Under the pieces are notes generated by a model. It made no database searches, was not told the DNA's origin, and saw only the letters and a list, made by a program, of their open reading frames with translations. A DNA stretch of 39,161 nucleotides from a virus (taxonomy: Duplodnaviria > Caudoviricetes), in the IMG/VR virus record IMGVR_UViG_3300007988_000038, positions 1-39,161 of that record. One strand, written 5' to 3'. Both the position numbers and the translations under genes were made by a program. Shown here in pieces: positions 2,060-20,959 of this stretch. The stretch's first letter is position 1; each line of letters opens with the position of its first letter.

Positions 2060-2074
2060 GGTTTTATCTCCTGA

Positions 2075-3604: not shown

Positions 3605-3606
3605 AC

Positions 3607-3846: not shown

Positions 3847-4406
3847 TGTTCATCTCCTTTGGGTTCATAGGTTCGTTCTTCATTCACGCTGCCGTGAAAC
3901 TGGAAAGTTCGGTCCTTGATCAGATGGCCGTTTCTGATTTCGCCATCGTAAACAGGACAATCTTCAATGCGGATGCGTCCGGAGCTTTGCTTCAGATTGG
4001 AAAGGTTGACCCGGTTCAGACTTCCCAACGGAGCGATTTCCGCCAGGTTGAGTTGCCCCTGATCCGTAATGGTCAAAACGGGATTGCGCTGGACAAATCG
4101 GGAGACCGATTCCTGAAATTCAAGGAGTTCAACCTCACGGTCCACGGTCACGATCAAGTCAAAGTCGAGATGATAGAGTCGCGGGAAGGAACATTCCTCG
4201 AACGACAGGGTGTCCACGTTCTTTTCAATAAGGCGGCTTTGGCTGCGGCGCAGTTTGTTTTCACTTAACTTAGGCCCTTGCAGAATGACGCTTGGCGTGC
4301 GCTGAACTTCGAAAACATCATCAGGCAGGACCAGCAAGGCGTCGGGATGGATGTCGGCCTTGACCTGCCTGATCAGTGTTTCTGTAACGGTTCGTATTGT
4401 GCTCAC
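3843..4406 (-). CDS. Putative tail terminator / tail completion protein
   Basis: Position just upstream of the sheath; GTG start with GGAGG RBS; function inferred from gene order. Confidence 0.55.
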   Translation of the reverse strand: MSTIRTVTETLIRQVKADIHPDALLVLPDDVFEVQRTPSVILQGPKLSENKLRRSQSRLIEKNVDTLSFEECSFPRLYHLDFDLIVTVDREVELLEFQESVSRFVQRNPVLTITDQGQLNLAEIAPLGSLNRVNLSNLKQSSGRIRIEDCPVYDGEIRNGHLIKDRTFQFHGSVNEERTYEPKGDEQ

Positions 4407-4432
4407 GGTAGCCTCCGGTTGTTTCTGCCAGA

Positions 4433-4463
4433 TTACTTACCGGAAGCGTTGCGGATGTGTCGG
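4433..4463 (-). promoter_or_regulatory. Motif copy 1, CCGAC-N15-CCGGTAAGTAA (upstream of tail genes)
   Basis: + strand TTACTTACCGG aagcgttgcggatgt GTCGG. Confidence 0.75.
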
Positions 4464-4464
4464 G

Positions 4465-4950
4465 TCAGAGAATACCTTTCAGGGCCTGCCTGTAATTTTG
4501 CTCAATCTCTTTGCGGTATTTCTGCATGATGGGATGAAGAAACGGTCGGGGTGGGATGATTATGGTCGCCCCGTTCGGGTGGTTGATGGTGGCTCCGTAT
4601 TCCATGACAGCTCCGATATTCACCATGCTTTTCCCGTCCTTGTTGACGGTTCCACGGAGAAGACCGACAAATGCCTTGTCCGCCATAATTTTCTGGGTAA
4701 TGGAGTTGATCAGAAAGCCGGTGTCGATGAGCGCCTTACTGGAACCTTTGCGGGCAATTGTGCTGTCGGCCAGCTTGGCGAAAGCCTGTCCGCCCGGAGC
4801 CTGATTGCGGATGCCGCGTTGAATTTCACGGACAAGAAACAGGGCATTGCTGATGGTAGCCTGCTGAAGCGCCATAGCGATCCGGGGACCGAGTGTGCCA
4901 TTTAGTTTAGCTTTCGCCTTGTTCCAGTCACCGGTCCGTTTAACGCCCAT
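4465..4950 (-). CDS. Neck / virion morphogenesis protein (HK97 gp10 / Mu gpG-like)
   Basis: STIARKGSSKALIDTGFLINSI...EYGA...IPPRPFL motifs. Confidence 0.78.
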   Translation of the reverse strand: MGVKRTGDWNKAKAKLNGTLGPRIAMALQQATISNALFLVREIQRGIRNQAPGGQAFAKLADSTIARKGSSKALIDTGFLINSITQKIMADKAFVGLLRGTVNKDGKSMVNIGAVMEYGATINHPNGATIIIPPRPFLHPIMQKYRKEIEQNYRQALKGIL

Positions 4951-5299
4951 GGAACTTCACCAGTTTGATGGATTTGTGGGTGATGACTCCAAAGAAGTGT
5001 TCTTCTTCGAGTGTCTGTATTCTGTATGTGACTGTTTCTATCTGGAGTCTGTCCTCCGGGACAACGTCGGCTTCCGGCAAAACCGAAACAGTGGCATCGA
5101 TCTTTCCGGCGAGATCCTCCGGGGGTGTATGGACAATTTCAACAGGGATTGAGCCGGTCGGGGTGTATTCCTGATCATCGCTTCCGTATAGATTTTCACC
5201 GGCAACGATACGAAGGACTGTGGCGGTGATGCCGGATGAAACAATCAGCTCTTTGACGTCCTTCACTGCCTGTTCTTTTTCCTGATCTGTCAAAAGCAT
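4940..5299 (-). CDS. Putative head closure / head-tail adaptor
   Basis: About 120 aa, beta-rich (DRLQIETVTYRI); located in the neck cluster. Confidence 0.55.
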   Translation of the reverse strand: MLLTDQEKEQAVKDVKELIVSSGITATVLRIVAGENLYGSDDQEYTPTGSIPVEIVHTPPEDLAGKIDATVSVLPEADVVPEDRLQIETVTYRIQTLEEEHFFGVITHKSIKLVKFHGR

Positions 5300-5769
5300 C
5301 AGCAATCCTCTTCAAGGCAAATTCCCTGTTCATATATTACCGGTGACAGACCGACGGGGGTGATGATGTAGCCATCCTCGTTGACCTCGGTTCCGGGTTT
5401 CAAGGCGGAGAGTCTTTTCCGGTATTCATCCAGCAGGTCCACTTCGAGTTTGGCCCAGTGTTCAGGTTGCTTTGACTTATCGACCCGCTTGTCGCCGCTG
5501 GAAAAGGAAAAGGCATTGGCTGTGGCAGAGCGCATCACCTGACAGGCATGTATCTGCCCCAGCAACAGGAGCAGTTCCCTGAGTTCTCCGCTGATATCCG
5601 GCAGAATCTGCTCTCCCTCGATGGTGAGAGAAATCTCCGCATCCCGGGACAGCTTAAAAACTGCTTTCCGGACGCATCTCTCCAGTGTCGAATCCACAAA
5701 GAGAGACGCATCCGGATCGGACAGGTCGATACGCAAGTCGGCTATGAGCTCAGGAAGCGTCAACGTCAA
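5299..5769 (-). CDS. Putative head-tail connector
   Basis: LIADLRIDLSD...FSFSSGDKRVD pattern; second gene after the capsid gene. Confidence 0.55.
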   Translation of the reverse strand: MTLTLPELIADLRIDLSDPDASLFVDSTLERCVRKAVFKLSRDAEISLTIEGEQILPDISGELRELLLLLGQIHACQVMRSATANAFSFSSGDKRVDKSKQPEHWAKLEVDLLDEYRKRLSALKPGTEVNEDGYIITPVGLSPVIYEQGICLEEDC

Positions 5770-6109
5770 CCTCCGTAAGACGGCTCTTCAACGCGTCGAT
5801 CACGGTTCTGCGTTTTTCCATTTCCATATAGCCTTTGAGCTTGGCCGGGTCGGCCTCTTCATTGACCTTGGAAATGGCGTCGGTCGCGTTAAGCTTGCTC
5901 AGATCATCATCCTGATCCTGATCCTGCTTGCCCTGAGGAGAAGGCTTGTCAGCTTTCTCTTTGTCGATCTGAATCAGCACGCCAGTTTTCAGGCAGTGTT
6001 TGATCTGATCGGTCTGATCTTCAACAGGTGCGACCTCTCCGGGTAGCAATTTTAGTCCGGCATCCGGAATGATGAGAATGCCGGGGCGAACATTTTTTAT
6101 CGTCAACAT
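5750..6109 (-). CDS. Hypothetical protein after major capsid gene
   Basis: ATG at 6109 with GGAGGA RBS; helical C-terminus (EKRRTVIDALKSRL). Confidence 0.65.
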   Translation of the reverse strand: MLTIKNVRPGILIIPDAGLKLLPGEVAPVEDQTDQIKHCLKTGVLIQIDKEKADKPSPQGKQDQDQDDDLSKLNATDAISKVNEEADPAKLKGYMEMEKRRTVIDALKSRLTEVDVDAS

Positions 6110-6125
6110 GATTCCTCCTTCAGCA

Positions 6126-6995
6126 TTAAACACCAAGTTTCACTCGGGCCAGAATGTCCGGACGGGTAACACCCTGACCGATTTCGGACCAGACCAGCCA
6201 ACCGGTTTTGAAGCGGGTCTTCTGGTCGATGGATTCGGCTTTGAGCTTTTCACGGACTGGCATTTTCCCCACTTCTTCATCCGGAATGATCAGAATTTCA
6301 TCGAGGGGCATGGATGCCGTCAACAGGATGCCTCCGGTGCCGTAATTCTTAACCACACCTTTCTGCCGTAGCTCGAGCTTGGTCTGAGGATCAAGATCCC
6401 AGCCGCGCAGATCGTTGAAACGGCGACCGCGCATGACGATGTATTTCACCGACAGCTCGAGGTCCTCGATGATGGAGATGGCTTCATTGAGGGCTTCCTC
6501 GGTAAGCGTGTTTCCAGCCACTTCAATGGTATTGGCTGCAGGGACTGCCGCCGACAACACAGAGATGGATCTACGGTCCATCTCTTTTCGAATAGCATCG
6601 GATGCACTGGTCTGGATATCCATCAGCGTGCCGATGTTGCCGTTTTTGAGAACGGAAATATCCACCATCGGGTTGGAGTGAATGCGGTTGGTCGGGAATT
6701 CGACTTCATCTTTGCCGATTTCCTGCTCCTGCGCTTCACCGTCCTTACTGATCCAGTGGGCTTTGACGGTCGGCTTTTTCTGATAAAGCGGACGTTCGCC
6801 CTTGGGCAACGTGTGTTTGGTCAGCAGCAGAGAGGAGATTTCCTTGCGCCGGATTTCCTCTTCGATCGGAGCGGCAATTGCAGCAGCCAACGCCTGCATC
6901 CCTTCAGGGGACTCAAGAGCTTCACTCATGAGCCTTGCCATGGTCTCCATGTATTCCTGGCTGTGAATGTTCATTGGGTTGTTCTTCATTTGCAT
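6126..6995 (-). CDS. Major capsid protein (probable HK97 fold)
   Basis: 289 aa, downstream of protease/scaffold and decoration genes; CAGGAG RBS; capsid-like C-terminus. Confidence 0.78.
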   Translation of the reverse strand: MQMKNNPMNIHSQEYMETMARLMSEALESPEGMQALAAAIAAPIEEEIRRKEISSLLLTKHTLPKGERPLYQKKPTVKAHWISKDGEAQEQEIGKDEVEFPTNRIHSNPMVDISVLKNGNIGTLMDIQTSASDAIRKEMDRRSISVLSAAVPAANTIEVAGNTLTEEALNEAISIIEDLELSVKYIVMRGRRFNDLRGWDLDPQTKLELRQKGVVKNYGTGGILLTASMPLDEILIIPDEEVGKMPVREKLKAESIDQKTRFKTGWLVWSEIGQGVTRPDILARVKLGV

Positions 6996-7007
6996 AAGCT
7001 CCTGTGA

Positions 7008-7373
7008 TTAAATAAGCAGTTTGAATTTCAAAACGCCGCTCTGGACGGAAATGGCCTGAGCAATGACATGCTCGTCATTTCCGATGTTTCCACCGGTCAG
7101 CTTACCGGTGGCCGATACCTTCAGGTCATCCCCGGGATTGATCGTCCCTTCGAAGACATCGGTCTCGTACACACCGCCATTGCAGTAGATGCCGGGCATT
7201 TCACCGCCTGCATAATCCCTGATCAGGATGCCGATAGAACGGACCTCCGGATCGGTGTTGACTGAAAACAGATCGTTTCCGACCAGACTCACCAGAAGAC
7301 CAAGCTGGCCATCTCCCTGCATATAGCCGTCACCGTAAGCGAGGCCCCTGTGACATGGATTGATAAAAGACAT
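7008..7373 (-). CDS. Putative capsid decoration / cement protein
   Basis: Gly-rich beta protein (GVYETDVF...PGDDLKVSATGKL) between scaffold and capsid genes. Confidence 0.6.
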   Translation of the reverse strand: MSFINPCHRGLAYGDGYMQGDGQLGLLVSLVGNDLFSVNTDPEVRSIGILIRDYAGGEMPGIYCNGGVYETDVFEGTINPGDDLKVSATGKLTGGNIGNDEHVIAQAISVQSGVLKFKLLI

Positions 7374-7387: not shown

Positions 7388-7948
7388 TTAGTTGATTTCC
7401 ACGGTTTCGTTCGATTCGTTACCGACACGGTTGTTGTAGGCAGCCATGAAGCCGGTGCGCAGGCGATCCTCGAGGGAAAGCTTGCGGTCATCCACATCGT
7501 GAGGTCTCACCCCGGCAGAACTGCGCATGGGGGGTTCGCTTGATGCTTTGGATTTGTGTTTTTCAGGCTCTTTTTCCGTTTCCGGCTGCGGCTTGGCATC
7601 CGCCTTGTTGCTTTTGGCCATCTTTTCATAGGCAGCCTCGGTGGCGGCAAAAGCGTCGTCCGACAGTTCAGCTAGACGCGTGAGTTCGTTGTCGCGATCC
7701 TCCCCGAAGTCCATGCCTTGCTTTTCAAGTTTTGAGATCAGTTTGTGAGCACGGGCTTTCGAAGCGGCAGCCTTCTGTTCGGCCTCCAGCTCCTGAATGC
7801 GCTTCTGAAGTTCGGCCACCTGAGCTTTCAACTGGCGGTTTTCCTTTTCCAGCTCGCTCCCGGGAGCCGGATTGTCTTCCTGCCGTTCCTGTTTTTTCTT
7901 AGCGGCGTCGGCGGACGACTCATCTGGTTTCTTGGTTTTTTCGTCCAT
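7388..7948 (-). CDS. Nested in-frame scaffold protein (internal start)
   Basis: AAAGGAGATCCAATT-ATG (MDEKTKK...) in frame, at the start of the coiled-coil region; 186 aa. Confidence 0.65.
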   Translation of the reverse strand: MDEKTKKPDESSADAAKKKQERQEDNPAPGSELEKENRQLKAQVAELQKRIQELEAEQKAAASKARAHKLISKLEKQGMDFGEDRDNELTRLAELSDDAFAATEAAYEKMAKSNKADAKPQPETEKEPEKHKSKASSEPPMRSSAGVRPHDVDDRKLSLEDRLRTGFMAAYNNRVGNESNETVEIN

Positions 7949-9775
7949 AATTGGATCTCCTTTGGGTTGGTGTGGGGCAGATGGGTCCTGAACCGACGCC
8001 ACCTGCAGAATGCGGGCATTTTCATCTGCCCCTTTGCGGTCCAGCAGGCCCAGGCCCGTAAAAGTCACGCCGTGAAGAATCTCGAAGACGGATTTTCCAT
8101 CGAGTTCACGGCCCTTAAATTTTCTGAGGTGGGTGCAGTAATCGGATTTGTTCTTGAAGCGCTTTTTACAAACGGAGCATTCACCTTCCTCGTAATCACA
8201 CTCCATCGATACCTGCGTGATGATGCCTCGTTTCATGAGCTTGTAGGCCAGCTGGGCATTTGGCGTGTCCCCGGTGTAGAGTTCACCGACACATTCGACC
8301 CGACCGCCGATTTCATCTTCCAGATAGTCAGCCGCCACAACTCCACCAACAATGTCACTGAACTCTTGAGAGTGCTGAAGGTCGACTTTCTTGTTGATTG
8401 CGGTCATGTGTCTTCCGGCCAGCTCCTCGGCTGTAAAATGGTCTCCATTTCGGTTGGTGCCGGTTCTGCAAAGAACGAAGGTGAACTGGGGATCGCCCGC
8501 CATACCTCCGCTCATCGCTTCAGCGTTCAGCCCGGAATGCTCATCGAGACACAGCTCCACCGGGATGGATGTGTGGATATTGGCTGCCGCAGCCATCGGA
8601 ACAGGTTTTGCCGACAGATCGGAGTCCGCATGAGACTGGCTTCCTTTCAGACAAACGAAAAGACGTTCTTTCGCGCTGGAAGCCTCCCCATGCTTGGAGG
8701 TGATCGAATACTTATGGTCCTTGGTCTTCATCCGGCTCTGACGTCCCAGACCGCCGATGATCTTTTTCATCTGCTGTTCGTTCGGATAGGCATGATCACG
8801 GTAAGAAATGAGCCAGTGCGGGATATGTGTGGCATTGCCGAGAAATTCCTGAAAGAAGTCGGAGGCGTTGCCCTTGGTGACAGTCACATGGCTGGTTTCA
8901 TAGTTTTTGACCTTGGTATCCGTTTTGATGGTCAGACCGTCCCAATACGTCATCAGTCCTTCGACGAAATGATAGGCTTTTTCATAATTGGTGGTCGAAA
9001 ACTCGGTTGCATAAGGCGGGTCAAAGTACGCGAGGTCAGCCTTCACCTTGGGAAGGATCTCGTTAACATCCCCGCGATAGGCTTTGTTCTCTTTGTCGTT
9101 GTCGAATATCAGGGCGTTGATCCGCTCGATATTGGCCTTCAGGCGTTTTTTGAATTCATCAGGTGTGTCCTGACGCTTGCCGTAATCAGTGGAGGACGAG
9201 AAGTGGCCGAATCCGCCTTTGCCGCTCATGCAGGTTTTCCCAAGAGCAAACAGAGCAATGTCCTTTTTATAGCCGGACAAGTCGTCACAATTGGCTCTCA
9301 GGGAATCGATAAGAGAGTGGACGCCTTTGGCAAAGAAAATCCCTTTAAAATTATCCTGTACAAAGGTTTTCGCTTTTGGGTTGTCAGCCAGCAGCTTGTC
9401 AATCTCGGCTTCGGAAAGTCGTGTCGAACTGTTCTCGACGATGGCTTTGGCTGCGTGATGACTGTAGCGAAGACGGTCATTGGCAAAAACTCGCAGCCCT
9501 TTGGATTTGTACATGTAAGCAACAACGGCCGACCCGGAAAAGGCATCCAGAACAGAGGAAACTCCGTCCGGGGTGTTACGCCAGATCCAGTCGACCAGCT
9601 TCTGTTTGCTGCCGATGTAGTTGGTGATGTACTTGGGGCGTTTCTCCGGGGGCTGCTCTTCAGGAGCCTTCTGTTCGGCTGCATTGGTCCCGATCTCGTC
9701 GGGATCGATTGCGAGCGCCGCATCTGCCTCAAGGAGGAACGCCAGCCTTTCCAGGTCAGTGGCAAACATTTCCAT
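7388..9775 (-). CDS. Fusion of D12-class DNA adenine methyltransferase, prohead protease and scaffold
   Basis: ATG 9775 with GGAG RBS. MTase motifs YIGSKQKL, VLDAFSGSA and AYFDPPY; then phage prohead-protease-like NRNGDHF...DLQH...VSMEC..CSVC..CTH..GADENARI; then a charged coiled-coil scaffold. No stop between the domains. Confidence 0.85.
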   Translation of the reverse strand: MEMFATDLERLAFLLEADAALAIDPDEIGTNAAEQKAPEEQPPEKRPKYITNYIGSKQKLVDWIWRNTPDGVSSVLDAFSGSAVVAYMYKSKGLRVFANDRLRYSHHAAKAIVENSSTRLSEAEIDKLLADNPKAKTFVQDNFKGIFFAKGVHSLIDSLRANCDDLSGYKKDIALFALGKTCMSGKGGFGHFSSSTDYGKRQDTPDEFKKRLKANIERINALIFDNDKENKAYRGDVNEILPKVKADLAYFDPPYATEFSTTNYEKAYHFVEGLMTYWDGLTIKTDTKVKNYETSHVTVTKGNASDFFQEFLGNATHIPHWLISYRDHAYPNEQQMKKIIGGLGRQSRMKTKDHKYSITSKHGEASSAKERLFVCLKGSQSHADSDLSAKPVPMAAAANIHTSIPVELCLDEHSGLNAEAMSGGMAGDPQFTFVLCRTGTNRNGDHFTAEELAGRHMTAINKKVDLQHSQEFSDIVGGVVAADYLEDEIGGRVECVGELYTGDTPNAQLAYKLMKRGIITQVSMECDYEEGECSVCKKRFKNKSDYCTHLRKFKGRELDGKSVFEILHGVTFTGLGLLDRKGADENARILQVASVQDPSAPHQPKGDPIMDEKTKKPDESSADAAKKKQERQEDNPAPGSELEKENRQLKAQVAELQKRIQELEAEQKAAASKARAHKLISKLEKQGMDFGEDRDNELTRLAELSDDAFAATEAAYEKMAKSNKADAKPQPETEKEPEKHKSKASSEPPMRSSAGVRPHDVDDRKLSLEDRLRTGFMAAYNNRVGNESNETVEIN

Positions 9776-9841
9776 TAAATTCTCCGGTTCAATCACTGTT
9801 ATTTGCCCCGATCGCACCGGGCGAGCGGGAGGTTTCAGCGA

Positions 9842-9872
9842 TTACTTACCGGAAGGCTTTGAAATGTGTCGG
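9842..9872 (-). promoter_or_regulatory. Motif copy 2 (upstream of MTase-protease / capsid genes)
   Basis: + strand TTACTTACCGG aaggctttgaaatgt GTCGG. Confidence 0.75.
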
Positions 9873-9888
9873 AAAGGCGTCTGCTTTT

Positions 9889-10242
9889 TTAGGCGGGAAT
9901 CTTCAAAGACCATAAAACGGCAAGACCACAGGCGGTTATGGACGGGTATTCCTCTGTCTCGACCACTTCGGAAAAAGCGCCGTCATAAGGAGATCGGCTC
10001 TGGCGATGATACTCCAGAAAATCATCAGGGAGTGTTGTAACTCCATTCTCAACCAGACGGTTGATGACCCAATCAGCCTGTTCATGACGATCCTGAATGT
10101 CATTTCGGCTGGAGTCCGGATAGAACATCTCAATATCGATGCCCGGGCCGGGACCTTGTACCCAAACACCTACAGGCAGATATTCCGGCACCGCCGCTTT
10201 CGGATCAACAAGGATGGAATCGATCATGTATCTCAGCTTCAT
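9889..10242 (-). CDS. Hypothetical acidic protein (candidate immunity protein for MuF cargo)
   Basis: 117 aa; ATGA-coupled to the upstream gene; second gene after muF. Confidence 0.65.
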   Translation of the reverse strand: MKLRYMIDSILVDPKAAVPEYLPVGVWVQGPGPGIDIEMFYPDSSRNDIQDRHEQADWVINRLVENGVTTLPDDFLEYHRQSRSPYDGAFSEVVETEEYPSITACGLAVLWSLKIPA

Positions 10243-10748
10243 TCCCAGCCCTCCGCAATTTTGATGTGTTCAGCAAGAATCTCTGAATCCATGCGCAGGA
10301 ACATATCCCGATTGTCTTTTCTGAATGCCAGCCATGTTTCCCATTGTTTTGCATGAGCCGGTTCGGAAACGGGCTCGATCATTTCAAGATGATAAATGCG
10401 GTCCAGATCGTCGGTCAGCTCCACAATCAGCCATGCGTTGATTTCACTTCCCTCTGATTGCGCTGTCAGCGCGTCATCTACGGACACATGAACGACCTTG
10501 ATTGTGTGGCTGTAATTGAAGCCTTCCTGATAGCCGAGTTCCTTCCATAACAGCCAGAAATCTGTTCGGATGATTTTCCCAGCGGCATCAAAATGCGGTG
10601 CAATCAGTGTCACCCTGAGTTCTGCGGAAATGGTGTCGATGAAGTTCTCACCGCCATGTTCCCGGATTTGCAACCGGCAGCCACGCTCATTGAACCAATG
10701 AAGCAGTTTCTGGATTCGGGCTTTTTCCGCTGCGATTATTTTCTCCAT
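10239..10748 (-). CDS. Hypothetical protein (candidate immunity protein for MuF cargo)
   Basis: Likely start MEKIIAAE at 10748, 1 bp after the muF stop, with GAGG RBS; the longer start in the ORF track overlaps muF. Confidence 0.65.
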   Translation of the reverse strand: MEKIIAAEKARIQKLLHWFNERGCRLQIREHGGENFIDTISAELRVTLIAPHFDAAGKIIRTDFWLLWKELGYQEGFNYSHTIKVVHVSVDDALTAQSEGSEINAWLIVELTDDLDRIYHLEMIEPVSEPAHAKQWETWLAFRKDNRDMFLRMDSEILAEHIKIAEGWE

Positions 10749-10749
10749 A

Positions 10750-13700
10750 TTATTTCCTCTCATTCCATGTGCTTGACGTATGAATGATGTCTTCCACCTT
10801 ACGGCCGTCAGGAAGTTTCTTGATCCCACGGGATGTGAAGCTCTTGATAATTTTCTGCCGTTCGGAAGCCGAATTGGCCACGATATATTCAATGTTGTCC
10901 AGCAGTGTTACTGAATACTTGAAGATGGTTTCATTGCTGCTTTTGCCCGAAAACTTTTTCCAGTCATCGATATTGTTTCCACGATTCTTCCGGACGTAAT
11001 CATCCACTACTTTGCCATAGGCGTCATGGCCGTAACTGATAGCATCCATGCGCCGTAGCATGCTCTTTTTGAAATAGAGCGCCGGAGAAGCATCACGACT
11101 TGGATTTTTCTGGATACGTGTGAAGAAATAACTGGCACCACCGCTTTGCATATCCGCTACCGGTGACATACCGCCTGGAGGGATACCCATTCGCATTTTT
11201 TCTACGGTGCTGGCCATTGCGCCATTGTTTTCAAGAATGGTTTCAACAAAATCAGACATACCTTCGCTATTGGTCAAGCGATGGACCAGAGAGTAATCCT
11301 TCATTTTCTTTTCCAGATCCTCCTCAGTGATATCGAACCGGTATTGGTGTCGATACCCACCTTTCAAACCACGATCGAGAAATCCGGCCTGATACGCTCC
11401 CATGGGGTCGTAATCCGGCAGCTTGGTAAGGTCCTCGACATTCAGTTCCTTCTGCCAGAAACCACGGAGCGTCTGCACCCGCTCATTTACGGATGCATCG
11501 CGATCGTCGAGCCTTTTTTGAAGCCGCTTGTATTCAGCGGTGTGATCCACTTTTCGAATGTACGCCATTTTTTCCAGATACATCTGCTCGGCATTTTCGG
11601 GGGAAGAAACCCGCGCATCTATCCCGAGTTTCTCCAGTTTGGTCATCAGGGCTTCGACCTTCTTGCCACTGGCATCACCGTCGACCACGATCTCCAGCTC
11701 GCCCCGCTGGGCATAAAGGTTTGAATTATCCCATGGGCGGTATTTCAGACGCGTGCCGTCATCAAATTCAGCGGTGAATTGAAGGCCGTCCTGCATCCTC
11801 GAGTCACGATTGAACATGGCATAATTATCGATGTCATCCATCTCGACGGTTATCTTGCCGCTGCTGATCCGCCTCTTGGTGTGAGTGACCTTGCCTTTAG
11901 TGACCTTGAAATCAGGCTTCTTGGGCTTGGCCGTTTTCGGCAGTTCTGGGAGATACTGCTCTAAGACACCGTTGGTTGCACGGTCCCAGTCGACCGCTTC
12001 TTTGATTTCATCCAGCCATTTGATATAGCCGTCAGCCATCTTTTTGATTTCCGGATCTTTGCTTCGGGCGAGCACAAGCAGTCGGGTTCTCAGTTGTTCG
12101 GCTTTTCCCAATTTTGTCCGGTTATAGTTCCCATCGCCGACATGGAAGTTTACGTTTTTCACTGCATCCAGAATGGTCGGGAAAAAGGTGTCTTCCTCCA
12201 GGGGCTGGCCTTTTTTAATTTCAACAAGGTCCAGCTGTTCCCGAAGCAGGTCCGTGATTTTAGAATCCGTATCCGGCCGGATCTTCATTTTAACAACTGT
12301 GCGCTGCTTACCTTTGAAGGATTCTGTAAATATGAGGGCGTTCTGATCTTCGACATCACCACTGTCAAATGGCAGGGTTTTTCCCTGCCATCCAAGTTTT
12401 CCGGCATCATCGATGATTCTTTCATCCGCTTCCTGCAGCAGCTTCTTTATCCCGGGCTTGGCCTGCAGTGACGAGAACCTGAAGTCTTTCCGGCCTAAAA
12501 CCTCTCCGTAGTATCGCTCGAAATCATTCCGCAGATCATGTTTTCGTTGAAGTGTCTGCTCATAGAATTTATCCAGCCCGATTTTGTCTTTTCCAAAGCG
12601 CCCCTCGGCATATGGCCGGATGATATCGAGATAAGCCTCGTCGGATATTTTTTCGACTTCCTGAATGTATTTCAGGGAGCCCTGAGGATCGAAGTTGACC
12701 TTGCCTTCCTTGGCCGCCCTGAAGACCTTGTTGTAAAAAGGCTCCTCTTCGCCAAAGGCGCTGTTGGGATGATAATCCAGAGAAAGGCGATCTTTCCCGA
12801 GATGCTTGAAAGCCTGCCCCTTGTCAATGCCATAGACATGACCATTTCTTCCCCGGATAAACTGCTTTGAGTGTCCATCATGATTAGCGACAAGCCAGTC
12901 GATGACATGCTCACGCTGTAGCTGTTCGATCTCAACGGTGGTCAGATTCTCCGGCAGTATGTTTTTGAAATCGATTTCTGACTTCAGATCCGTTCGCCAC
13001 TTTTGGATGGAACCTGTTCTGCCGTTCAGCTGGATGGTCCTCACTTCGATTGCGTCCGGGTCAATCAGCCGACCGATCTTGTATGCGGCTTCTTCTCCTT
13101 GGGCGATAAAATTGTCCTTGGAGTTGCTGGCTGGTTTGAACAGCCATTTGTCGCCATTTTCATCGGTCCAAAACTCTTTTTCATGTGCTCCGCCGACATT
13201 CGCCTTGCCGGACTTATTGAATTTCCCGGCTGCGGATTTTTCATTCCATTTCTGATCGGCGCTTTCAAACTCAGAGCCTTTCTGGACAAAGGACGGCGGT
13301 TTGGTTTTGGGTTCAACAGGTGGCTTAGGTGGTTCTTTTTTTTCCTTTACAGGAGATGGCTTCGCCTTTTTGCCACCGTGCTTTTCAGCCCATTTCTGCC
13401 ATTTGCTCTCGATATTCGATTGCGCTTCTCCGATCTTTCCCGGATCGGTTTCGGTAAAGAGCGTGACGAGATCGTCCTTGCTTGCCCATTGCCAGTGTTT
13501 CAGCTGTGTCTCCTTGGCAATGGATTTGAGTTCCGACGATTTGAGTTTGGCAATCTGATCCTGAAAAAGCTGCTTTTTCAGAGCAATTTCCTTGGCGTGC
13601 CCGACAAGCAGTTCCTGAGGCAGATCTTTGGCCGATGCCAGAGCTTTTTCTGCATCGGAGATCTGGCTGATAAAATTGCTGTAATCCAGCGGTGATTCCG

Positions 13701-15321
13701 GAAGCTGAACTCCGGCCGCAGCCTTTTCGACCAGCTCTTTCTGTTTTTTCACCAGGAGCTGTTTTGCTTCATCCGCCGCTATCTTTTTGGCTGATTCAGC
13801 CAGATCCGTTCCGGCTTTTTTCTGCAGTGCATCAACGAGCTGTTGTTTATTCTTCAGGATGCCGATTCCGTACTGCTTTTTCTTTGCCAGCAGTTCCTTT
13901 CCTTTCAGGGATGTGTGGTCAATTCCCGGCTCGAGCTTGTCCAGCAATTTGATGGTCTCCTGTTTGGTCATATTCAGGGAAATGCCGTTGTTTTTGGCCA
14001 TTTCTTTAAGCTGGGATACCGGCATACCCTCGAGTCCTTCCACCTGTGGAAGTTTGGACATCTGCTGGGCAATGAGTTTTGCCTGTTTGAGTTCAGCCTG
14101 CTTTTGAGCCAACAGCCCGATCAGGTCTTCCTTTGTCCGGAGCAGACCGATTTTGTGTTCCTTGAGCTTTGCCTTCAGTCCGGCCCCTGAAAGCGTGCTG
14201 TGGTCAATGCCCGGTTCTGCCTGATCGAGTAGTTTGATGAAGTCGGCTTTGGTGCGGGCAATGGAAATGCCGTTCTCTTTTGAGAGGGTCTGGAGCTGCT
14301 TTACGGTGAGTGCTGTAAGGTCATCGGCGCTTCCGTTCTCAAATGCCTCCTTCAGTTTGATGCTCTCTTTTGCCTGCGCATCCGCCATTCCTTCCAACGC
14401 ATGCGGGGGCAGTATACAGGCATCGCCCTGTGAAGCCTTGGGTGCCGCCTGTGCAGACAGATCGGAACCACAAATGCTCATGGGCCACGCGACAATATTT
14501 GTACAACGGCAATGGGGATGCGCTGGCTGTTGCGGGAATTTATCGATGGGAAATGTCTTACCGTCGAGAGGACCACATACCGGACAGGTTCTCTCGTCAT
14601 TCATGGCCATCCATTCAAGCTTCTGAACGCCGACGCGCTCATGAAATTTAAGCCGCCCCATGTTGTGTGCCCGTAACACCTCAGTCCGGGCAATCATTTC
14701 CATGCGGTACTGAGCCTTGCTGAACACTCGGCTGCCAGCCTGCCTGAAGGAGTCCTTATCGATGATGACCTTGCCAAGGTCGCGGACAATATCATCCGCA
14801 CCTTTACCCGTGGCTATACCGCTCAGGATCGTTCTCTTTATCCCATCCGACAGTTCACGGTGAACATCCCCGGCAAGCGTCAGATTGTATTGCGTCATGA
14901 AGTCGAGGGCATTGGTATCGACTATGGAGAACACCTTGGTGGCCAGTTTATCGATACCTTCAGGCTTCAGGTCGGCATAGAATGGCAGTGACGCGGATGT
15001 CAGTTCGGTAATGCCCTGAGCGATGCCGCCCTTGAAGGCGTCCTTGGTGCTTTTGCGGAAAACAAGCGTCTGGTTCCGCTTTAACTGGCGCAAAACATCA
15101 TCCAGCTCGCCTTGCAGCTTTTCCAGACCTTTCAAAGCTGCCAGCTTGTTGTCCGGCAAAGAGCCGAGAGTGCGATATTTCAAAATGGCCTGCGCAACTT
15201 CCTGTTCAGCCTTGTTGAGAGACTGAGTCAGTTGCGCTGTAATGGAATCGTTGTAGCGATTTCGGGATTTCAGGCTCTTGAGTGTTGCTGCCTGAATGCG
15301 TTCTTTGAGATCAGAAGGCAT
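10750..15321 (-). CDS. MuF (SPP1 gp7-like) minor head protein with HeH repeats, HipA/PI3K-like kinase domain and C-terminal enzyme-like domain
   Basis: MuF motifs IARTEVLRAHN...W...DERTCPVC...PAHPHCRC; repeated LTVKQLQTLSKENGI..TKADFIKLL units; kinase-like GGAHEK..WLFKP..EEAAY..DWLVANHDGH..IDKG. Confidence 0.85.
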   Translation of the reverse strand: MPSDLKERIQAATLKSLKSRNRYNDSITAQLTQSLNKAEQEVAQAILKYRTLGSLPDNKLAALKGLEKLQGELDDVLRQLKRNQTLVFRKSTKDAFKGGIAQGITELTSASLPFYADLKPEGIDKLATKVFSIVDTNALDFMTQYNLTLAGDVHRELSDGIKRTILSGIATGKGADDIVRDLGKVIIDKDSFRQAGSRVFSKAQYRMEMIARTEVLRAHNMGRLKFHERVGVQKLEWMAMNDERTCPVCGPLDGKTFPIDKFPQQPAHPHCRCTNIVAWPMSICGSDLSAQAAPKASQGDACILPPHALEGMADAQAKESIKLKEAFENGSADDLTALTVKQLQTLSKENGISIARTKADFIKLLDQAEPGIDHSTLSGAGLKAKLKEHKIGLLRTKEDLIGLLAQKQAELKQAKLIAQQMSKLPQVEGLEGMPVSQLKEMAKNNGISLNMTKQETIKLLDKLEPGIDHTSLKGKELLAKKKQYGIGILKNKQQLVDALQKKAGTDLAESAKKIAADEAKQLLVKKQKELVEKAAAGVQLPESPLDYSNFISQISDAEKALASAKDLPQELLVGHAKEIALKKQLFQDQIAKLKSSELKSIAKETQLKHWQWASKDDLVTLFTETDPGKIGEAQSNIESKWQKWAEKHGGKKAKPSPVKEKKEPPKPPVEPKTKPPSFVQKGSEFESADQKWNEKSAAGKFNKSGKANVGGAHEKEFWTDENGDKWLFKPASNSKDNFIAQGEEAAYKIGRLIDPDAIEVRTIQLNGRTGSIQKWRTDLKSEIDFKNILPENLTTVEIEQLQREHVIDWLVANHDGHSKQFIRGRNGHVYGIDKGQAFKHLGKDRLSLDYHPNSAFGEEEPFYNKVFRAAKEGKVNFDPQGSLKYIQEVEKISDEAYLDIIRPYAEGRFGKDKIGLDKFYEQTLQRKHDLRNDFERYYGEVLGRKDFRFSSLQAKPGIKKLLQEADERIIDDAGKLGWQGKTLPFDSGDVEDQNALIFTESFKGKQRTVVKMKIRPDTDSKITDLLREQLDLVEIKKGQPLEEDTFFPTILDAVKNVNFHVGDGNYNRTKLGKAEQLRTRLLVLARSKDPEIKKMADGYIKWLDEIKEAVDWDRATNGVLEQYLPELPKTAKPKKPDFKVTKGKVTHTKRRISSGKITVEMDDIDNYAMFNRDSRMQDGLQFTAEFDDGTRLKYRPWDNSNLYAQRGELEIVVDGDASGKKVEALMTKLEKLGIDARVSSPENAEQMYLEKMAYIRKVDHTAEYKRLQKRLDDRDASVNERVQTLRGFWQKELNVEDLTKLPDYDPMGAYQAGFLDRGLKGGYRHQYRFDITEEDLEKKMKDYSLVHRLTNSEGMSDFVETILENNGAMASTVEKMRMGIPPGGMSPVADMQSGGASYFFTRIQKNPSRDASPALYFKKSMLRRMDAISYGHDAYGKVVDDYVRKNRGNNIDDWKKFSGKSSNETIFKYSVTLLDNIEYIVANSASERQKIIKSFTSRGIKKLPDGRKVEDIIHTSSTWNERK

Positions 15322-15323
15322 GA

Positions 15324-16829
15324 TCAGGATTCCCGGCGGTCAATAAATCGGCAGGCCGGGGAATCGAAGGTGCGCTCGGTGTTGTGTACTCGGCAGCGGT
15401 TGGAATCTGGATTGAAGTGGCTGCATTCATCGCATAAGGAGGTTGCCGCCGTTGCTTCCATTTCCTCGGAATAGTGATGGTGGGCCTCGGTATCGAGATC
15501 GTTACCGTCAGCGGGAATACCGAGCATCTTTCTGGCGCTGGGAACACTCATGATTCCCGACACCACCATATCGACGATCGGCTTCACCTGTTTTTCATCC
15601 ATCAGGTCGATGTTCTTACGCTCGGTCTCACGATTTGCGGCTTCGATGTCCGGGTCCAGATCCATCTTGAGCTGCAAGCTGGAACGGCTGATCAGTTTGC
15701 GATCATACAGCTCGATGAGCAGTTTCTTGAAATCAACGGCATCACTCGGATCAAGGTCATTGAAGATGAATTGCAGGGACTTGTCGCTGTGGCCTTTCAG
15801 TTCCATCCAGTCATCGAAGATCCAGTCGAGCAGTTTTCGTGCGGCCTGTTTGATCTCCCGGATCATGACCATCATTTTCTGCATGCTCACAGAAGCTGTG
15901 GCAAAGTTAGGACCGTCTCCGGTCACCAAGGATCGTGAGAGGCCGAGAGCCACCACAATGTCTTCTTTGACCTCCTTGACCTTGTCCTCGACGTTGAGTA
16001 CCTGGCCATCCGTTCCGTGGGTTTCCACATTCACGTAAAACGGAACCACGAGGCCGCTCTTCATGTCCATCTTGTTGACCATGTCGCGGACCTGTTCCAG
16101 CATCCGCTGGTCGGGCATCACCATCTTTTGACCGAACGCGCCGCCCACTTTGAGGAGTCGGAAGGGAGTCGCCCAGCGCTTTGCAATGGCCTGTTCGGCG
16201 CGACGGTAATCACGCAGCAGTTCAATGGACTGAAACGCGGGCAGTACCAGTGAGTTTCCTCGTGGTGAGAAACCCGGGGCGTCCCATTTCAAATGGATGA
16301 CCTGATCAACCGGAAGGTCGATCGGATCACTGGCAGACCCTGAATCCTCAGCATATTGCATGGCTTCGATAAGTTCGCCCTGAGCATATTTCACCTTCAC
16401 GGAAACCGGATTGACACATACCACTTCCTCGATGTCCTGACCGGAAGCTGCATATCGCTTGAATCCAACAGCATCTCCTTTGACCAGCAGTTGGAGGATC
16501 ATATCTTTTATGAATTCGGAGACATCGAGTCTCCATGCGGCACTGACCGCATCGTTTTTCAGCGTTTCATCATCGCTGGTCATTTTGATTTCATCTCCAA
16601 CCGCAAACGTGCGCCATGAGTTGACACAGTTCTTTACCAGCGGCTCTTCGACGTAGTATTCCCACGCCTTTCTGGCTCGCTCCTCCCATGTGGCCGGGAC
16701 GGCATCCGTCGCGTTGACCTTGCTGAAAGCTGACGCATCGAGGGCAGCGGCAGCGGCCATGGGGACAATAGCGTATCCATTGGATTCGTTTTCCGGCTGC
16801 TCGGTATCTGGCTGGGCGTTTGTATCCAC
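15324..16829 (-). CDS. Portal protein (with C-terminal Cys/His cluster)
   Basis: Between terL and muF; YYVEEPLVKNCVN, VIHLK...RGNS, IVVALG patterns; 501 aa; GTG start with GAGG RBS. Confidence 0.85.
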   Translation of the reverse strand: MDTNAQPDTEQPENESNGYAIVPMAAAAALDASAFSKVNATDAVPATWEERARKAWEYYVEEPLVKNCVNSWRTFAVGDEIKMTSDDETLKNDAVSAAWRLDVSEFIKDMILQLLVKGDAVGFKRYAASGQDIEEVVCVNPVSVKVKYAQGELIEAMQYAEDSGSASDPIDLPVDQVIHLKWDAPGFSPRGNSLVLPAFQSIELLRDYRRAEQAIAKRWATPFRLLKVGGAFGQKMVMPDQRMLEQVRDMVNKMDMKSGLVVPFYVNVETHGTDGQVLNVEDKVKEVKEDIVVALGLSRSLVTGDGPNFATASVSMQKMMVMIREIKQAARKLLDWIFDDWMELKGHSDKSLQFIFNDLDPSDAVDFKKLLIELYDRKLISRSSLQLKMDLDPDIEAANRETERKNIDLMDEKQVKPIVDMVVSGIMSVPSARKMLGIPADGNDLDTEAHHHYSEEMEATAATSLCDECSHFNPDSNRCRVHNTERTFDSPACRFIDRRES

Positions 16830-18747: not shown

Positions 18748-19016
18748 TGTTCATTGTCCTCCGGATTTGTGTTCGCCCAGTTATCCAGTGAATCAATGGC
18801 TTTCTGCAGACGCAGCCCGATTCCGACCAAACGCTCCGCATCCGGGTGGTTGTATTCAACCAGAGCCTTATTTGCTTCCCGGACATATTCCGGGGTGTAG
18901 CGGTTCAGGGTGGATGTGGCCGACTGAATCTGCTCAGGCGGTCTGTACGTGGCGCAGCCAGCAACCATACCGGCCAGCGTCAATGGGATTACCCATTCGA
19001 GTGCTTTCTTTAACAT
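18744..19016 (-). CDS. Small lipoprotein
   Basis: Signal peptide MLKKALEWVIPLTLAGMVAG-C with lipobox VAGC; AAAGGAG RBS. Confidence 0.75.
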   Translation of the reverse strand: MLKKALEWVIPLTLAGMVAGCATYRPPEQIQSATSTLNRYTPEYVREANKALVEYNHPDAERLVGIGLRLQKAIDSLDNWANTNPEDNEQ

Positions 19017-19071
19017 GTTGCGCTCCTTTGATTTAGGGTTGTTTTATTAATGCAGAAAAATCTCTGCAAAC

Positions 19072-19102
19072 ACTTGATTTCCAAGAGGATATAAGCGTCA
19101 TT
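19072..19102 (+). promoter_or_regulatory. Second motif ACTTGATT-N14-AGCGTCATT, upstream of tyrosine recombinase cassette
   Basis: Same boxes and spacing as the minus-strand copy at 35853-35883. Confidence 0.55.
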
Positions 19103-19156
19103 GGACATGACGCGGGACGGTCCCGCAGAACCATAAACCGAAGCAGGAGACGACCC

Positions 19157-19351
19157 ATGAAACAGGTAAAAAACAGTGACGACGCCAGAACCGCCTACAA
19201 AAAGCGCCAGGACAACATTGCTGAGTACATCCAGCGGATTCAGAAGAAGCTGGCCGCAGATGCCGGGCAGGCGAATATCAACTGGGCTCACGTGGGATCG
19301 CTCGGGCACGTCGAAGAGCTGCTCCAGCAGATCGATGAGTTTCTGGGTTAA
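19157..19351 (+). CDS. Small hypothetical protein (INWAHVGSL motif)
   Basis: 64 aa; CAGGAG RBS; first gene of the + strand cassette. Confidence 0.7.
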   Translation: MKQVKNSDDARTAYKKRQDNIAEYIQRIQKKLAADAGQANINWAHVGSLGHVEELLQQIDEFLG

Positions 19352-19384
19352 GGAACCGGCTTCACAAACAAAGGAGTTAATGCC

Positions 19385-19756
19385 ATGACAGAGATGACCA
19401 TTCATGAAACCACTGCCGCCTTCATCAACCATCTTCGGGACAACGGCAAAAAGGAGCGCACGCTCTACACCTACCGGAAGGACCTCGACCTCATCGAGGG
19501 ATACTTCGGCAAGAACAAGATGCTTCAGGAGTTGAGAATCACTCAGGTTGGGAAGTTCCTCAAATGCGATACGCTTCTGAAACTCGGAAATGGTAATGCC
19601 CGGGCCGAGAGAACCGTTGCCAAGACCATCCGGGTCTTTCGGATGATGCTTGTCTGGGCCAAGGAGTCCGGTTTTATCGATGAGCTCCCGCTGCCCAAAA
19701 GCACCCCGATGGGACACAGCAAGCAGACGGAGGTGACCGATGCCGAACAGCAGTGA
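19385..19756 (+). CDS. Stand-alone integrase core-binding (SAM-like) domain protein
   Basis: FINHLRDNGKKERTLYTYRKDL...ERTVAKTIRVFRMMLVWA; no catalytic domain. Confidence 0.75.
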   Translation: MTEMTIHETTAAFINHLRDNGKKERTLYTYRKDLDLIEGYFGKNKMLQELRITQVGKFLKCDTLLKLGNGNARAERTVAKTIRVFRMMLVWAKESGFIDELPLPKSTPMGHSKQTEVTDAEQQ

Positions 19757-20648
19757 TCGACTGGAAGCGGCCATAGAGCGATTCTGTGCCCACTTGTCGG
19801 CCGAAAACAAAGCAGCAGGGACAGTGACCGCATACCGGCGGGATCTGCGACTGGTGGCCTGTGTGGCCGAATCCTTCCAGCTCGGACTCTGCTGCCAAGA
19901 TGTGACACCCGGTCTGCTGGATCGGGCTCTATCCTCACCGCAGCTTTTGACCACGAACTCGGGAACAAGGTCACCGGCATCGATCCACCGTTTGAAAGCG
20001 GCGGTCCGTTCATTCTTTGCATGGACAACGGATGCCGGGCTTACATTTGAAAACCCGGCCCGATCCGTTCGCATGAAAAGGCTGGCGCAGAAGCCGCCGG
20101 TATTCCTGACGGCTTCTGAAAAGAAGGTACTGCTGAAAGAGGTGAAAAGTCGCGTGGGGTTTTCAGACATGAGGGATCGGGTAATGATCGAAGTCCTGCT
20201 CGGAACCGGCATCCGTATCGGTGAGCTGGAATCTCTGGACACGGATGATATTGACCTCGATGCCAAGCATCTGAGAGTCAGAGCCAAGGGGAATGTGGTG
20301 CAGGTCAAGTTCATAAAAACCGACCTCCGCATATTACTGAAAAGGTATCTGAAAGAACGATCCCGGCAAAGCACAGTACAATGCAGCCCACTGTTTCTTT
20401 CCAATAGAGGAACACGTCTTTGCCAGCGGCAGATTGCCAACCGGATAGCCTTGTGGCTGAAGAAGGCTGGTATTGAAAAGAACCTGACTCCGCATGGCCT
20501 GCGGCATACCTTTGCAACCCACCTTTACGGGGCCACCAGTGACCTGCTTGTCGTGCAGAGGGCGCTGGGGCACCGGGATATTTCAACGACTCAAATCTAC
20601 ACCCACCTTGTTGATGGGCAACTCGAGGATGCCCTTGAAAGGCTGTAA
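19740..20648 (+). CDS. XerC/D-family tyrosine recombinase
   Basis: Full catalytic set: GIRIGE (R), AKGN (K), HGLRH, LGH, TTQIY (Y). Confidence 0.93.
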   Translation: MPNSSDRLEAAIERFCAHLSAENKAAGTVTAYRRDLRLVACVAESFQLGLCCQDVTPGLLDRALSSPQLLTTNSGTRSPASIHRLKAAVRSFFAWTTDAGLTFENPARSVRMKRLAQKPPVFLTASEKKVLLKEVKSRVGFSDMRDRVMIEVLLGTGIRIGELESLDTDDIDLDAKHLRVRAKGNVVQVKFIKTDLRILLKRYLKERSRQSTVQCSPLFLSNRGTRLCQRQIANRIALWLKKAGIEKNLTPHGLRHTFATHLYGATSDLLVVQRALGHRDISTTQIYTHLVDGQLEDALERL

Positions 20649-20671
20649 CATCAGTGTTCACCCGAACATCC

Positions 20672-20696
20672 GGAGCGGCTCCTGCTGCTCCTTTTT
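20672..20696 (+). terminator. Intrinsic terminator after tyrosine recombinase
   Basis: GGAGCGGC-TCCT-GCTGCTCC-TTTTT. Confidence 0.65.
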
Positions 20697-20723
20697 CATT
20701 CTCGGGGCGCGTATTCGAATTGC

Positions 20724-20840
20724 TGTATATGGCGTTATGCGCACACAAGGCCATACAGTCCACTTTGGGATTTATTGCGTTATGTGCGCATAAGCCAATA
20801 AAGTTGATTTTCTTGTGTATGGTTTTATGCACACAGGATT
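20724..20840. repeat. Three imperfect palindromic repeats at 45-bp period
   Basis: TTATG cores at 20735, 20780 and 20825; the best copy is TTTATTGCGTTATG-TGCG-CATAAGCCAATAAA. Confidence 0.7.
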
Positions 20841-20903
20841 GGAGGAAGCTGATGCTGAACCGATGGTTCATACCCGCCGTTCGAGAAATTTTATTTAACT
20901 GAA

Positions 20904-20931
20904 ATTTCCGGGAACATGCCTTATCTGAAAT
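20904..20931. other. dif/lox-like recombination core site (11-6-11)
   Basis: ATTTCCGGGAA-CATGCC-TTATCTGAAAT; arms are 8/11 inverted; right arm resembles the XerD arm TTATGTTAAAT. Confidence 0.5.
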
Positions 20932-20959
20932 TCCTGTCATCGAGAGCCTCCATAACTGC

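Follow-up and report, generated by a model that had tools for sequence, protein, structure and literature searches.

A five-residue alanine motif at the joints of fused phage head proteins as a probable cut site of an assemblin-fold protease

That one protease matures the portal, scaffold and cargo of a phage head is textbook knowledge from T4 and SPN3US, which limits the surprise of a similar arrangement elsewhere. Passages of the published work describe SPN3US gp245 cutting the portal and internal proteins at a single A-x-E motif (PMC10052503; PMC5694885), T4 Alt being cut at both ends (PMC5694885), and T4 gp21 removing a blocking N-terminal peptide, with a targeting sequence also described (PMC9958956). 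The subject of this study is a 39,161-nucleotide stretch of viral DNA (Duplodnaviria; Caudoviricetes; IMG/VR record IMGVR_UViG_3300007988_000038, positions 1 to 39,161), called the window throughout. Its head genes encode a fusion of a DNA methyltransferase, an assemblin-fold protease and a scaffold, as well as a MuF minor head protein with a long C-terminal cargo. A five-residue motif, [LM]-x-[ATS]-x-[AG], often preceded by proline, stands at the joints of these proteins and near both ends of the portal protein. Quite probably the phage's own protease recognizes this motif and cuts it after the alanine. In full, the reading proposed here is that the protease cuts the motif at the joints during maturation and that the freed enzymes are likely kept in the head for delivery; a probability of roughly 0.6 is assigned to it.

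As far as the published passages go, T4 gp21 and the phiKZ and SPN3US proteases resemble the window's in their assemblin fold and have the N-terminal propeptide that is predicted for it. In T4 and SPN3US one short motif recurs in portal (SPN3US), scaffold and cargo; the sequence suggests the same here, with cargo flanked on both sides by the motif as T4 Alt is cut at both ends. However, the T4, phiKZ and SPN3US enzymes cut after glutamate (A-x-E in SPN3US), whereas the window motif has an invariant alanine and a leucine or methionine four residues upstream. The T4 and SPN3US cargos are separate proteins with N-terminal targeting peptides, whereas those of the window are fused to the protease-scaffold and to MuF. 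The window phage is also small and carries an integrase and a repressor, unlike T4, phiKZ and SPN3US.

Herpes assemblins cut after alanine, and nested protease-scaffold genes are found in lambda (C/Nu3) and Mu (I/Z). In herpesviruses the scaffold carries an R and an M site and is encoded by a nested gene, according to passages of PMC12474303 and PMC11565193, and UL26/UL26.5 resembles the window in fold (1vzv, Z 10.9), in its nested in-frame scaffold gene and in a site near the scaffold C-terminus. The herpes protease has no enzyme cargo fused ahead of it, however, while the window's R-equivalent site fits the motif poorly and the motif adds leucine or methionine at P5 (residues are numbered back from the predicted cut, P1 being the last of the motif).

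Polyvalent proteins are multi-enzyme phage proteins with, as in the window, an assemblin-like peptidase on the C-terminal side, which probably processes them (Iyer 2017, PMC5512222); the passages concerned describe no cleavage motif, no methyltransferase-protease-scaffold order and no portal site. Temperate phages carry MuF polymorphic toxins (Jamet 2017, PMC5576092; Zhang 2012, PMC3482391) that, as described in parts of these papers, have a MuF domain, C-terminal enzyme domains, including an ADP-ribosyltransferase-like one, and small linked genes downstream; the window has such a MuF domain and such linked genes, and enzyme domains are predicted for its MuF protein. The window differs in its two predicted enzyme domains, two linked genes and conserved protease-type motif at the MuF-cargo joint. 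A passage of PMC3482391 suggests a papain-like domain as a possible processor of MuF toxins, and a word search of PMC5576092 returned no 'cleav', 'released' or 'processed'. Phage G, Rhodococcus phage E3, mycobacteriophage Myrna and Salmonella phage Arash likewise have repeated x-x-Ala motifs in head proteins, but these are large phages with lysine or arginine at motif position 3, unlike the window. Gp19 has been detected in phage G, in passages that give no cut sites (PMC12484599, PMC8570332), and the relevant parts of the papers examined contain no measured cut for head proteins of phage G, E3, Myrna or Arash. The open-licence literature searched holds no report of the motif, of a cut site in the family or of a methyltransferase-protease-scaffold fusion. 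What appears to be new is the probable alanine-type five-residue specificity and the fused cargo arrangement, the kind of protease being already known.

The window is a 39-kb phage contig, the sole contig of its assembly, with 37 proteins comprising 11,299 amino acids (aa). On its minus strand lie the terminase, the portal, the 1523-aa MuF protein, two small genes and the 795-aa fusion, then genes for the capsid (a probable decoration protein and the major capsid protein), the neck, the sheath and the tube. A genome search for relatives gave 159 confirmed matches, of which the best 80 loci were kept for per-locus counts. These counts, made without dereplication, are given with the features below.

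7388 to 9775, minus strand: methyltransferase-protease-scaffold fusion, 795 aa from the ATG at 9775 (Pfam, PHROG and structural matches)
9680 to 9733, minus strand: methyltransferase leader motifs LEADA (aa 15-19) and, looser, IGTNA (aa 28-32; L-G-[TAS]-x-A in homologs); 64 of 66 loci
8651 to 9619, minus strand: D12-class N6-adenine DNA methyltransferase with FxGxG-like and DPPY motifs (PF02086; PADLOC)
8582 to 8596, minus strand: fusion-point motif MAAAA (aa 394-398); 38 of 49 loci, with a weaker logo (P5 L/M in 14 of 23)
8516 to 8530, minus strand: LNAEA (aa 416-420), directly upstream of the protease core, a predicted propeptide site; 75 of 79 loci
7997 to 8500, minus strand: assemblin-fold prohead protease core (structural matches), with conserved H468, S523 and D584 and a four-ligand Cys/His zinc-binding-like insertion
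7994 to 8011, minus strand: ILQVA-S at the end of the last protease strand, a possible release-type site that is off-motif at position 3 (model and homologs)
7388 to 7961, minus strand: nested scaffold (aa 610-795), with AGGAG at 7957-7961 and an in-frame ATG at 7946-7948 (sequence and relatives' contexts)
7514 to 7528, minus strand: MRSSA (aa 750-754), 41 aa from the scaffold C-terminus, maturation-site-like; 70 of 72 loci
15324 to 16829, minus strand: 501-aa portal protein; variable extension at the N-terminus, Cys-rich module at the C-terminus (PHROG 2739 portal, E 7.7e-76)
16746 to 16760, minus strand: portal N motif MAAAA (aa 24-28), predicted cut after A28; 45 of 45 loci
15447 to 15497, minus strand: portal C-linker motifs LDTEA (aa 445-449) and MEATA (aa 457-461), ahead of the Cys module; 27 of 49 loci
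10750 to 15321, minus strand: 1523-aa MuF minor head protein, a long cargo at its C-terminus (Pfam PF04233 at aa 160-275, E 2.4e-17)
14446 to 14460, minus strand: MuF-cargo joint LSAQA (aa 288-292), where a cut would free a 1231-aa, 139-kDa cargo; 47 of 49 long-MuF loci

A sequence-only reading of the window had proposed a shared [LM]-x-A-x-A motif at domain junctions of three head proteins. All six of its motifs are present on the minus strand where it placed them: LNAEA at 8516-8530, LSAQAA at 14443-14460, MEATAA at 15444-15461, IGTNAA at 9677-9694, and VPMAAAA both at 16746-16766 (portal aa 22-28; it had given about 16744) and at 8582-8602 in the methyltransferase-protease linker. The two VPMAAAA copies match at the protein level, as it had said, their codons differing at six of seven positions with the Met codon alone in common. 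VPMAAAA is the sole 7-mer shared between any of the 37 proteins. Even so, local shuffles produce some shared 7-mer in 148 of 1000 runs with all 37 proteins, and in 8 of 1000 with three proteins that were picked post hoc. Because such sharing arises so readily, the exact 7-mer is weak evidence alone and was discarded as proof. Nor is V-P-M fixed in portal homologs (Pro in 102, Leu in 78 and Met in 35 of 116). These shuffles are a point in favor of an explanation by chance, in which the matches arise from alanine-rich linkers and shared descent.

Homologs provide the stronger test. Inspection covered the genome loci, 120 homologs of the portal and, for the protease, 120 close and 150 distant ones; across them the motif is conserved in linkers that otherwise vary. 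Lack of conservation in homologs, which the sequence-only reading had named as a refutation, was therefore not observed. Its definition needed correction, as position 3 is A, T or S rather than A alone and the last position is at times G. The strict form is enriched in four linker sets dereplicated at 50% identity: upstream of the protease (19 of 33 against 3.7 expected), in the portal C-linker (6 of 27 against 1.7), in the MuF linker (4 of 5 against 0.6) and in the methyltransferase N-linker (3 of 5 against 0.3). The portal N-extension (0 of 28) and the scaffold linker (3 of 14 against 1.4 expected) show no such enrichment. The wider motif, at the same dereplication, occurs in 27 of 33 segments of 60 aa upstream of the protease (9.0 expected), 16 of 27 portal C-linkers (4.6), 5 of 5 MuF linkers (1.3), 4 of 5 methyltransferase N-linkers (0.6) and 13 of 14 scaffold C-linkers (2.6). 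In dereplicated portal N-extensions, with the conserved block left out, it occurs in 8 of 28 against 1.4 expected. The 40 aa downstream of the protease, taken as a control, show no enrichment (2 of 36 against 4.4).

In four linker sets unrelated to one another, an unbiased ranking of three-class gapped patterns places the motif 6th of 6296, 13th of 11216, 11th of 5475 and 10th of 4860; in the post-protease control its rank is 7718th of 8032. Across 116 portal homologs the N motif has L or M at P5 in 113, T, A or S at P3 in 115 and A at P1 in every one. Whole-protein motif counts were set aside, as conserved positions dominate them (0.97-fold in MuF, 1.96-fold in terminase, 4.6-fold in the capsid protein). 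An origin of the methionine from start codons is ruled out, as the Leu codons CTT, CTA and TTA substitute for it. A T4-like glutamate at P1 is likewise ruled out; the alanine is fixed while the position before it varies (E, Q, D, A, R, V, S and others). The earlier list of sites holds for both ends of the portal, for the joint of MuF and cargo and for the two flanks of the methyltransferase, but it overlooked the scaffold site at 7514-7528, the best-conserved extra one. Sequence comparison confirms the motif as a conserved and real feature.

Selection for the motif itself, as opposed to accidental inheritance, is argued most strongly by newly made joints, which acquire it. In many relatives the module order is shuffled, with two methyltransferases and small modules that contain Trp. 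Such double forms yield 19 distinct sequences for the joint that follows their first methyltransferase; these have alanine at P1 (19 of 19), A, S or T at P3 (19 of 19) and L or M at P5 (15 of 19), while P4 takes seven residues and P2 takes four, so that both vary freely. Among proteins below 50% mutual identity, the motif precedes eight of the nine small-module starts that were caught by pattern, compared with a 2.6% background.

The Trp-containing module itself is about 100 aa long and without known family. It is present in one or more copies between the methyltransferases and the protease, nearly always behind the motif, and was seen at L117:8510-8830 and in P0247, P0249, P0252, P0258, P0261, P0262, P0264 and P0271.

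Variable segments elsewhere behave differently. None of 22 in neck, tail and accessory proteins is enriched for the motif, and none of 12 within the MuF cargo, including a long Lys/Pro linker (0 of 17 sequences). Frameshifted loci L085, L100, L123 and L152 were excluded from this variable-segment test and from the whole-protein counts, and L088 and L145 also from the table of cargo and double-methyltransferase forms. Two signals were not counted: enrichment at fusion aa 191, 299 and 302, which appears due to second-methyltransferase sequence in mis-trimmed double forms, and an MuF N-terminal signal (9 of 12), which is partly mis-trimming and partly a helix match. Chance has in its favor, besides the shared 7-mers of the shuffles, the false enrichment that kinship gave in 4 of 13 tape-measure segments. 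The shuffles preserve composition, however, and the pattern still ranks near the top in four unrelated linker sets; it also appears at newly made joints and is missing from equally Ala- and Lys-rich control linkers. An origin by chance is thereby largely refuted and is very improbable.

The enzyme that would read the motif is encoded within the fusion. A single assemblin-type protease domain had been proposed, and the predicted structure supports an assemblin-fold maturation protease. In an AlphaFold model of aa 366-612 the core has a predicted local distance difference test score (pLDDT) above 90, and both upstream motif sites lie in low-confidence coil. The core matches T4 gp21 (5jbl) at Z 11.3, with a root-mean-square deviation (rmsd) of 2.4 over 128 aligned residues, and herpes proteases at Z 10.9 (VZV, 1vzv), 8.2 (8j3s) and 6.1; the next unrelated fold scores 5.6. 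Herpes proteases are also the top Foldseek matches of the core, at a weak E of 5e-3. The Pfam HK97-type family Peptidase_S78 scores 16.7 bits, under its cut-off of 21 (E 0.0085), and a PDB sequence search with the protease gave zinc-finger matches alone. H468 and S523 are invariant and D584 is present in at least 90% of 64 sequences. A cut after alanine is proposed because the alanine is invariant and because herpes assemblins have that specificity. An equivalent of LNAEA is present also in relatives that have no methyltransferase, so the pre-protease motif is probably an older propeptide site that the cargo exploits. At the end of the last strand I-x-x-V-A is conserved, but its position 3 is Q, K, S or T, and the motif does not occur in the following 40 aa.

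Whether a host enzyme could instead read the motif is informed by its distribution. Staphylococcal Prp, which processes phage head proteins, is a precedent for a host protease in this role. Against it, the motif is constant across prophages whose record titles, among the best 80 of the 159 matches, name Desulfobacterota, Armatimonadota, Acidobacteriota, Planctomycetota and other hosts in many phyla. It shifts, moreover, from one phage protease lineage to another. Even the nearest homologs from cultured phages are distant; for the protease they show 26-33% identity, and for the protease and the capsid protein together they include phage G gp19 and gp27, E3 gp77, Myrna gp97 and Arash gp222. In head proteins of these phages K-x-A is the top gapped pair, with 24 occurrences against 12.4 in phage G, 27 against 14.8 in Myrna and 37 against 17.0 in Arash (L-x-K next), and R-x-A ranks third in E3. 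These cultured phages with K/R-x-A and related proteases are L081 (phage G), L237 (E3), L238 (Arash) and L239 (Myrna). By motif position 3, 56 scorable proteases divide into 10 small-type, 12 basic-type and 34 unclassed; all 10 small-type enzymes fall in the window's branch and 10 of the 12 basic-type ones outside it. A change at position 3 that tracks protease lineage fits recognition by the phage protease, which also keeps its predicted catalytic residues, and a host protease is highly improbable as the enzyme.

The fusion gene itself appears to make two products. A conserved ribosome-binding site and start codon lie downstream of the protease, GGAG with a start being found in 37 of 37 distinct relatives' contexts, where ATG, GTG and TTG interchange; this internal start very probably yields a scaffold-only protein. 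The proposed sequence of events begins with synthesis of the long fusion and, very probably, of this nested scaffold. A few copies of the fusion would then co-assemble with the scaffold while MuF binds the portal, and both cargos would thus enter the prohead. Next, and with good likelihood, the protease would strip its own N-terminal propeptide, cut the scaffold 41 aa from its end, trim both portal ends and cut the cargo joints. Finally, a 41-kDa methyltransferase and the 139-kDa cargo would remain in the head and enter the next cell, a step about which the odds are even. The sequence-only reading had inferred a coordinated scheme of cargo loading and release and is partly supported as a whole: loading is better explained by the fusions, to scaffold and to MuF, with the motif serving release.

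An uncut docking peptide would also account for a conserved motif, if it targeted proteins into the prohead by binding to a protease exosite, the scaffold or the inner side of the capsid. The matches in the portal block and the capsid N-arm, strongly conserved and structural-looking, are what such a role predicts, and cutting the motif that lies in a loop of the second methyltransferase would leave that enzyme nicked. Targeting is already provided by the scaffold in the fusion, however, which makes three to five extra targeting peptides needless. The sites lie exactly between modules and ahead of the protease core, like known propeptide and maturation sites, and the last residue is nearly invariant and small, as P1 should be. 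Docking without cleavage is accordingly rated improbable. The loop motif was seen in double-methyltransferase loci (L117, L121, L124, L148 and others), where the motif with a Ser directly after it is conserved in a variable loop of the second enzyme and not at a joint.

Several observations weigh against cleavage and delivery as proposed. T4 gp21, the top structural match, cuts after glutamate, so the fold does not fix P1. The wider motif was defined after homologs were inspected and was hence checked in several ways. It is degenerate; primase (7 in 1105 aa), RecD2, terminase and integrase all contain it at background level, and matches lie inside domains, namely the capsid N-arm (three, where the sequence is homologous to residues that the phage G 6WKK chain contains) and, in double forms, the loop of the second methyltransferase. 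Coverage of the portal C-site is uneven, as its locus count shows, and in the variable-segment test two portal segments (9 sequences) were not enriched, with 2 of 9 each (2 of 9 against 1.0 for the C-site). The portal N-block has further invariant residues and may also be structural. Because tape-measure segments were enriched through kinship, which inflates shuffle counts, the shuffle values are not true probabilities. The change at position 3 is essentially one deep split with no independent co-evolution, and 34 of the 56 proteases are unclassed. Lastly, the open-licence literature searched contains no report of cleavage, virion proteome or activity for this phage family.

The fate of the freed methyltransferase separates delivery from its main rival, action in the producer cell. 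The domain is well recognized, with 85.2 bits for PF02086 against a cut-off of 22 and a PADLOC type II methyltransferase match at E 4.6e-56; a PDB sequence search with it gave no match. Its FxGxG-like motif, which binds S-adenosylmethionine, and its DPPY motif are intact, at aa 77 and 252. Cuts in the leader and after aa 398 would free a 366-aa enzyme with a computed mass of 41 kDa. Under delivery, the enzyme would shield incoming DNA from restriction. Under the rival, the motif is a cut site for ordinary maturation only, and the methyltransferase leaves the prohead or acts in the producer cell during packaging, undelivered. The presence of the pre-protease site in relatives lacking the methyltransferase is in keeping with this, as is the departure of herpes scaffold cores before or during packaging, described in a passage of PMC12474303. 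Yet the methyltransferase is flanked by sites (64 of 66 loci on one side, 38 of 49 or 75 of 79 on the other), and it stays fused down to about 40% protease identity, the D12 domain being present in 17 of 36 scanned representatives. A late free gene could methylate progeny DNA without any fusion, and the MuF cargo has predicted enzyme folds typical of delivered effectors, as passages of PMC5576092 portray them. Maturation without delivery is therefore regarded as unlikely, while retention and delivery of both freed cargos is an evenly balanced proposition.

The content of the MuF cargo, and the genes that accompany it, are as follows.

12487 to 13284, minus strand: predicted PI4KII/CtkA/HipA-type kinase fold, about aa 680-945 (VIA-align and weak HipA_C)
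10753 to 11334, minus strand: predicted DarT-like ADP-ribosyltransferase fold, about aa 1330-1523, at the cargo C-terminus (VIA-align)
9889 to 10748, minus strand: two small genes (about 169 aa and 117 aa) accompanying the full MuF cargo (co-occurrence)

Short and long MuF forms alternate among relatives. The extension comprises weak SAP/Rho_N-type repeats, of a DNA-binding type, together with the kinase-like and DarT-like domains, all of which the 139-kDa piece would contain. The kinase-like domain aligns with 4pla (PI4KII) at Z 12.9 (rmsd 4.0, 231 aligned) and with 3akj (CtkA) at Z 10.6, and HipA_C matches it at E 4.6e-4, under the cut-off. The DarT-like domain aligns with 8baq at Z 9.6 (rmsd 4.8, 160 aligned) and with 7omv at Z 8.9, and its H1347 and E1464 are invariant in 24 of 24 sequences. 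These fold matches rest on an 850-aa model with a mean pLDDT of 74; Foldseek with the cargo model gave no match at E 0.001 or better, and in the ESM Atlas neither the cargo C-terminus nor the 170-aa gene matched a named family. The cargo would be released as one 139-kDa piece, because no enriched motif site lies within it.

Both small genes are present in 47 of 47 full-cargo loci, and both are missing in six of seven short-MuF loci, a pattern such as would be expected of immunity genes. The profile and structure-atlas searches made found no family for either. Both are candidates for an immunity or chaperone role.

For the release of MuF toxins and other fused cargos from their structural anchors the motif offers a specific answer, with predicted fragment ends and masses. 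In the window these would be portal 29-449 or 29-461 (47-49 kDa), methyltransferase 33-398 (41 kDa), a protease beginning at 421, MuF cargo 293-1523 (139 kDa) and a scaffold that ends at 754. If true, the reading adds an alanine-specific five-residue code to the phage head proteases, of which the best-mapped cases cut after glutamate, and links the window's code to the K/R-x-A form seen in phages like G. If injected along with the DNA, the methyltransferase would offer the phage a simple means of escaping restriction, which could help explain the spread of the family across phyla. A bolder and more tentative extension, held at somewhat less than even odds, is that these are plug-in polyproteins: modules placed ahead of the protease-scaffold or behind MuF, flanked by the motif, would be loaded and freed by one alanine-specific protease. 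Each virion would inject one or more anti-restriction methyltransferases of its own and a kinase/DNA-ADP-ribosyltransferase effector, the superfamily would have switched its code at one position (Lys/Arg or small), and the site in the second methyltransferase would be a maturation-timed switch. Were this so, a widespread family of temperate phages in many bacterial phyla would build its head cargo in this way.

The remaining head features concern the capsid and the portal end.

6126 to 7373, minus strand: probable decoration protein (7008-7373, by position) and major capsid protein (6126-6995) (PHROG 2522; 6WKK, E 6.7e-36)

The major capsid protein is related to phage G gp27. The matches in its N-arm are not accepted as cut sites and are probably structural, given their homology to residues in the phage G 6WKK chain. 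At the C-terminus of the portal lies a conserved module with four Cys (window 15327-15434), possibly metal-binding, that would be lost through the predicted cut. At window 902-6136, nine genes for tail, neck and head completion have no motif match in about 1,700 aa, and most such families in relatives fall below shuffle expectation; these genes possibly avoid the motif.

Outside the head genes, five genes (476, 220, 178, 112 and 262 aa) at window 19010-22638, between primase and terminase, have no Pfam or PHROG match, and a serine recombinase and a LexA-like repressor (Pfam) lie at the opposite end of the window. A 677-aa antisense open reading frame (window 7745-9778, plus strand) overlaps the fusion gene. 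Antisense frames of at least 500 aa occur in 28 of 70 relatives, and because their lengths vary widely this one is probably a shadow frame. Members of the family are present in cultured hosts, as database names of homologs include Oleidesulfovibrio alaskensis G20 for one portal and one fusion homolog. The protease-scaffold regions of L082-L086 are 87-93% identical to that of the window, in records labelled Phycisphaerae, Desulfatitalea, Gammaproteobacteria and Geopsychrobacteraceae, a spread that reflects either a very broad host range or mis-binning.

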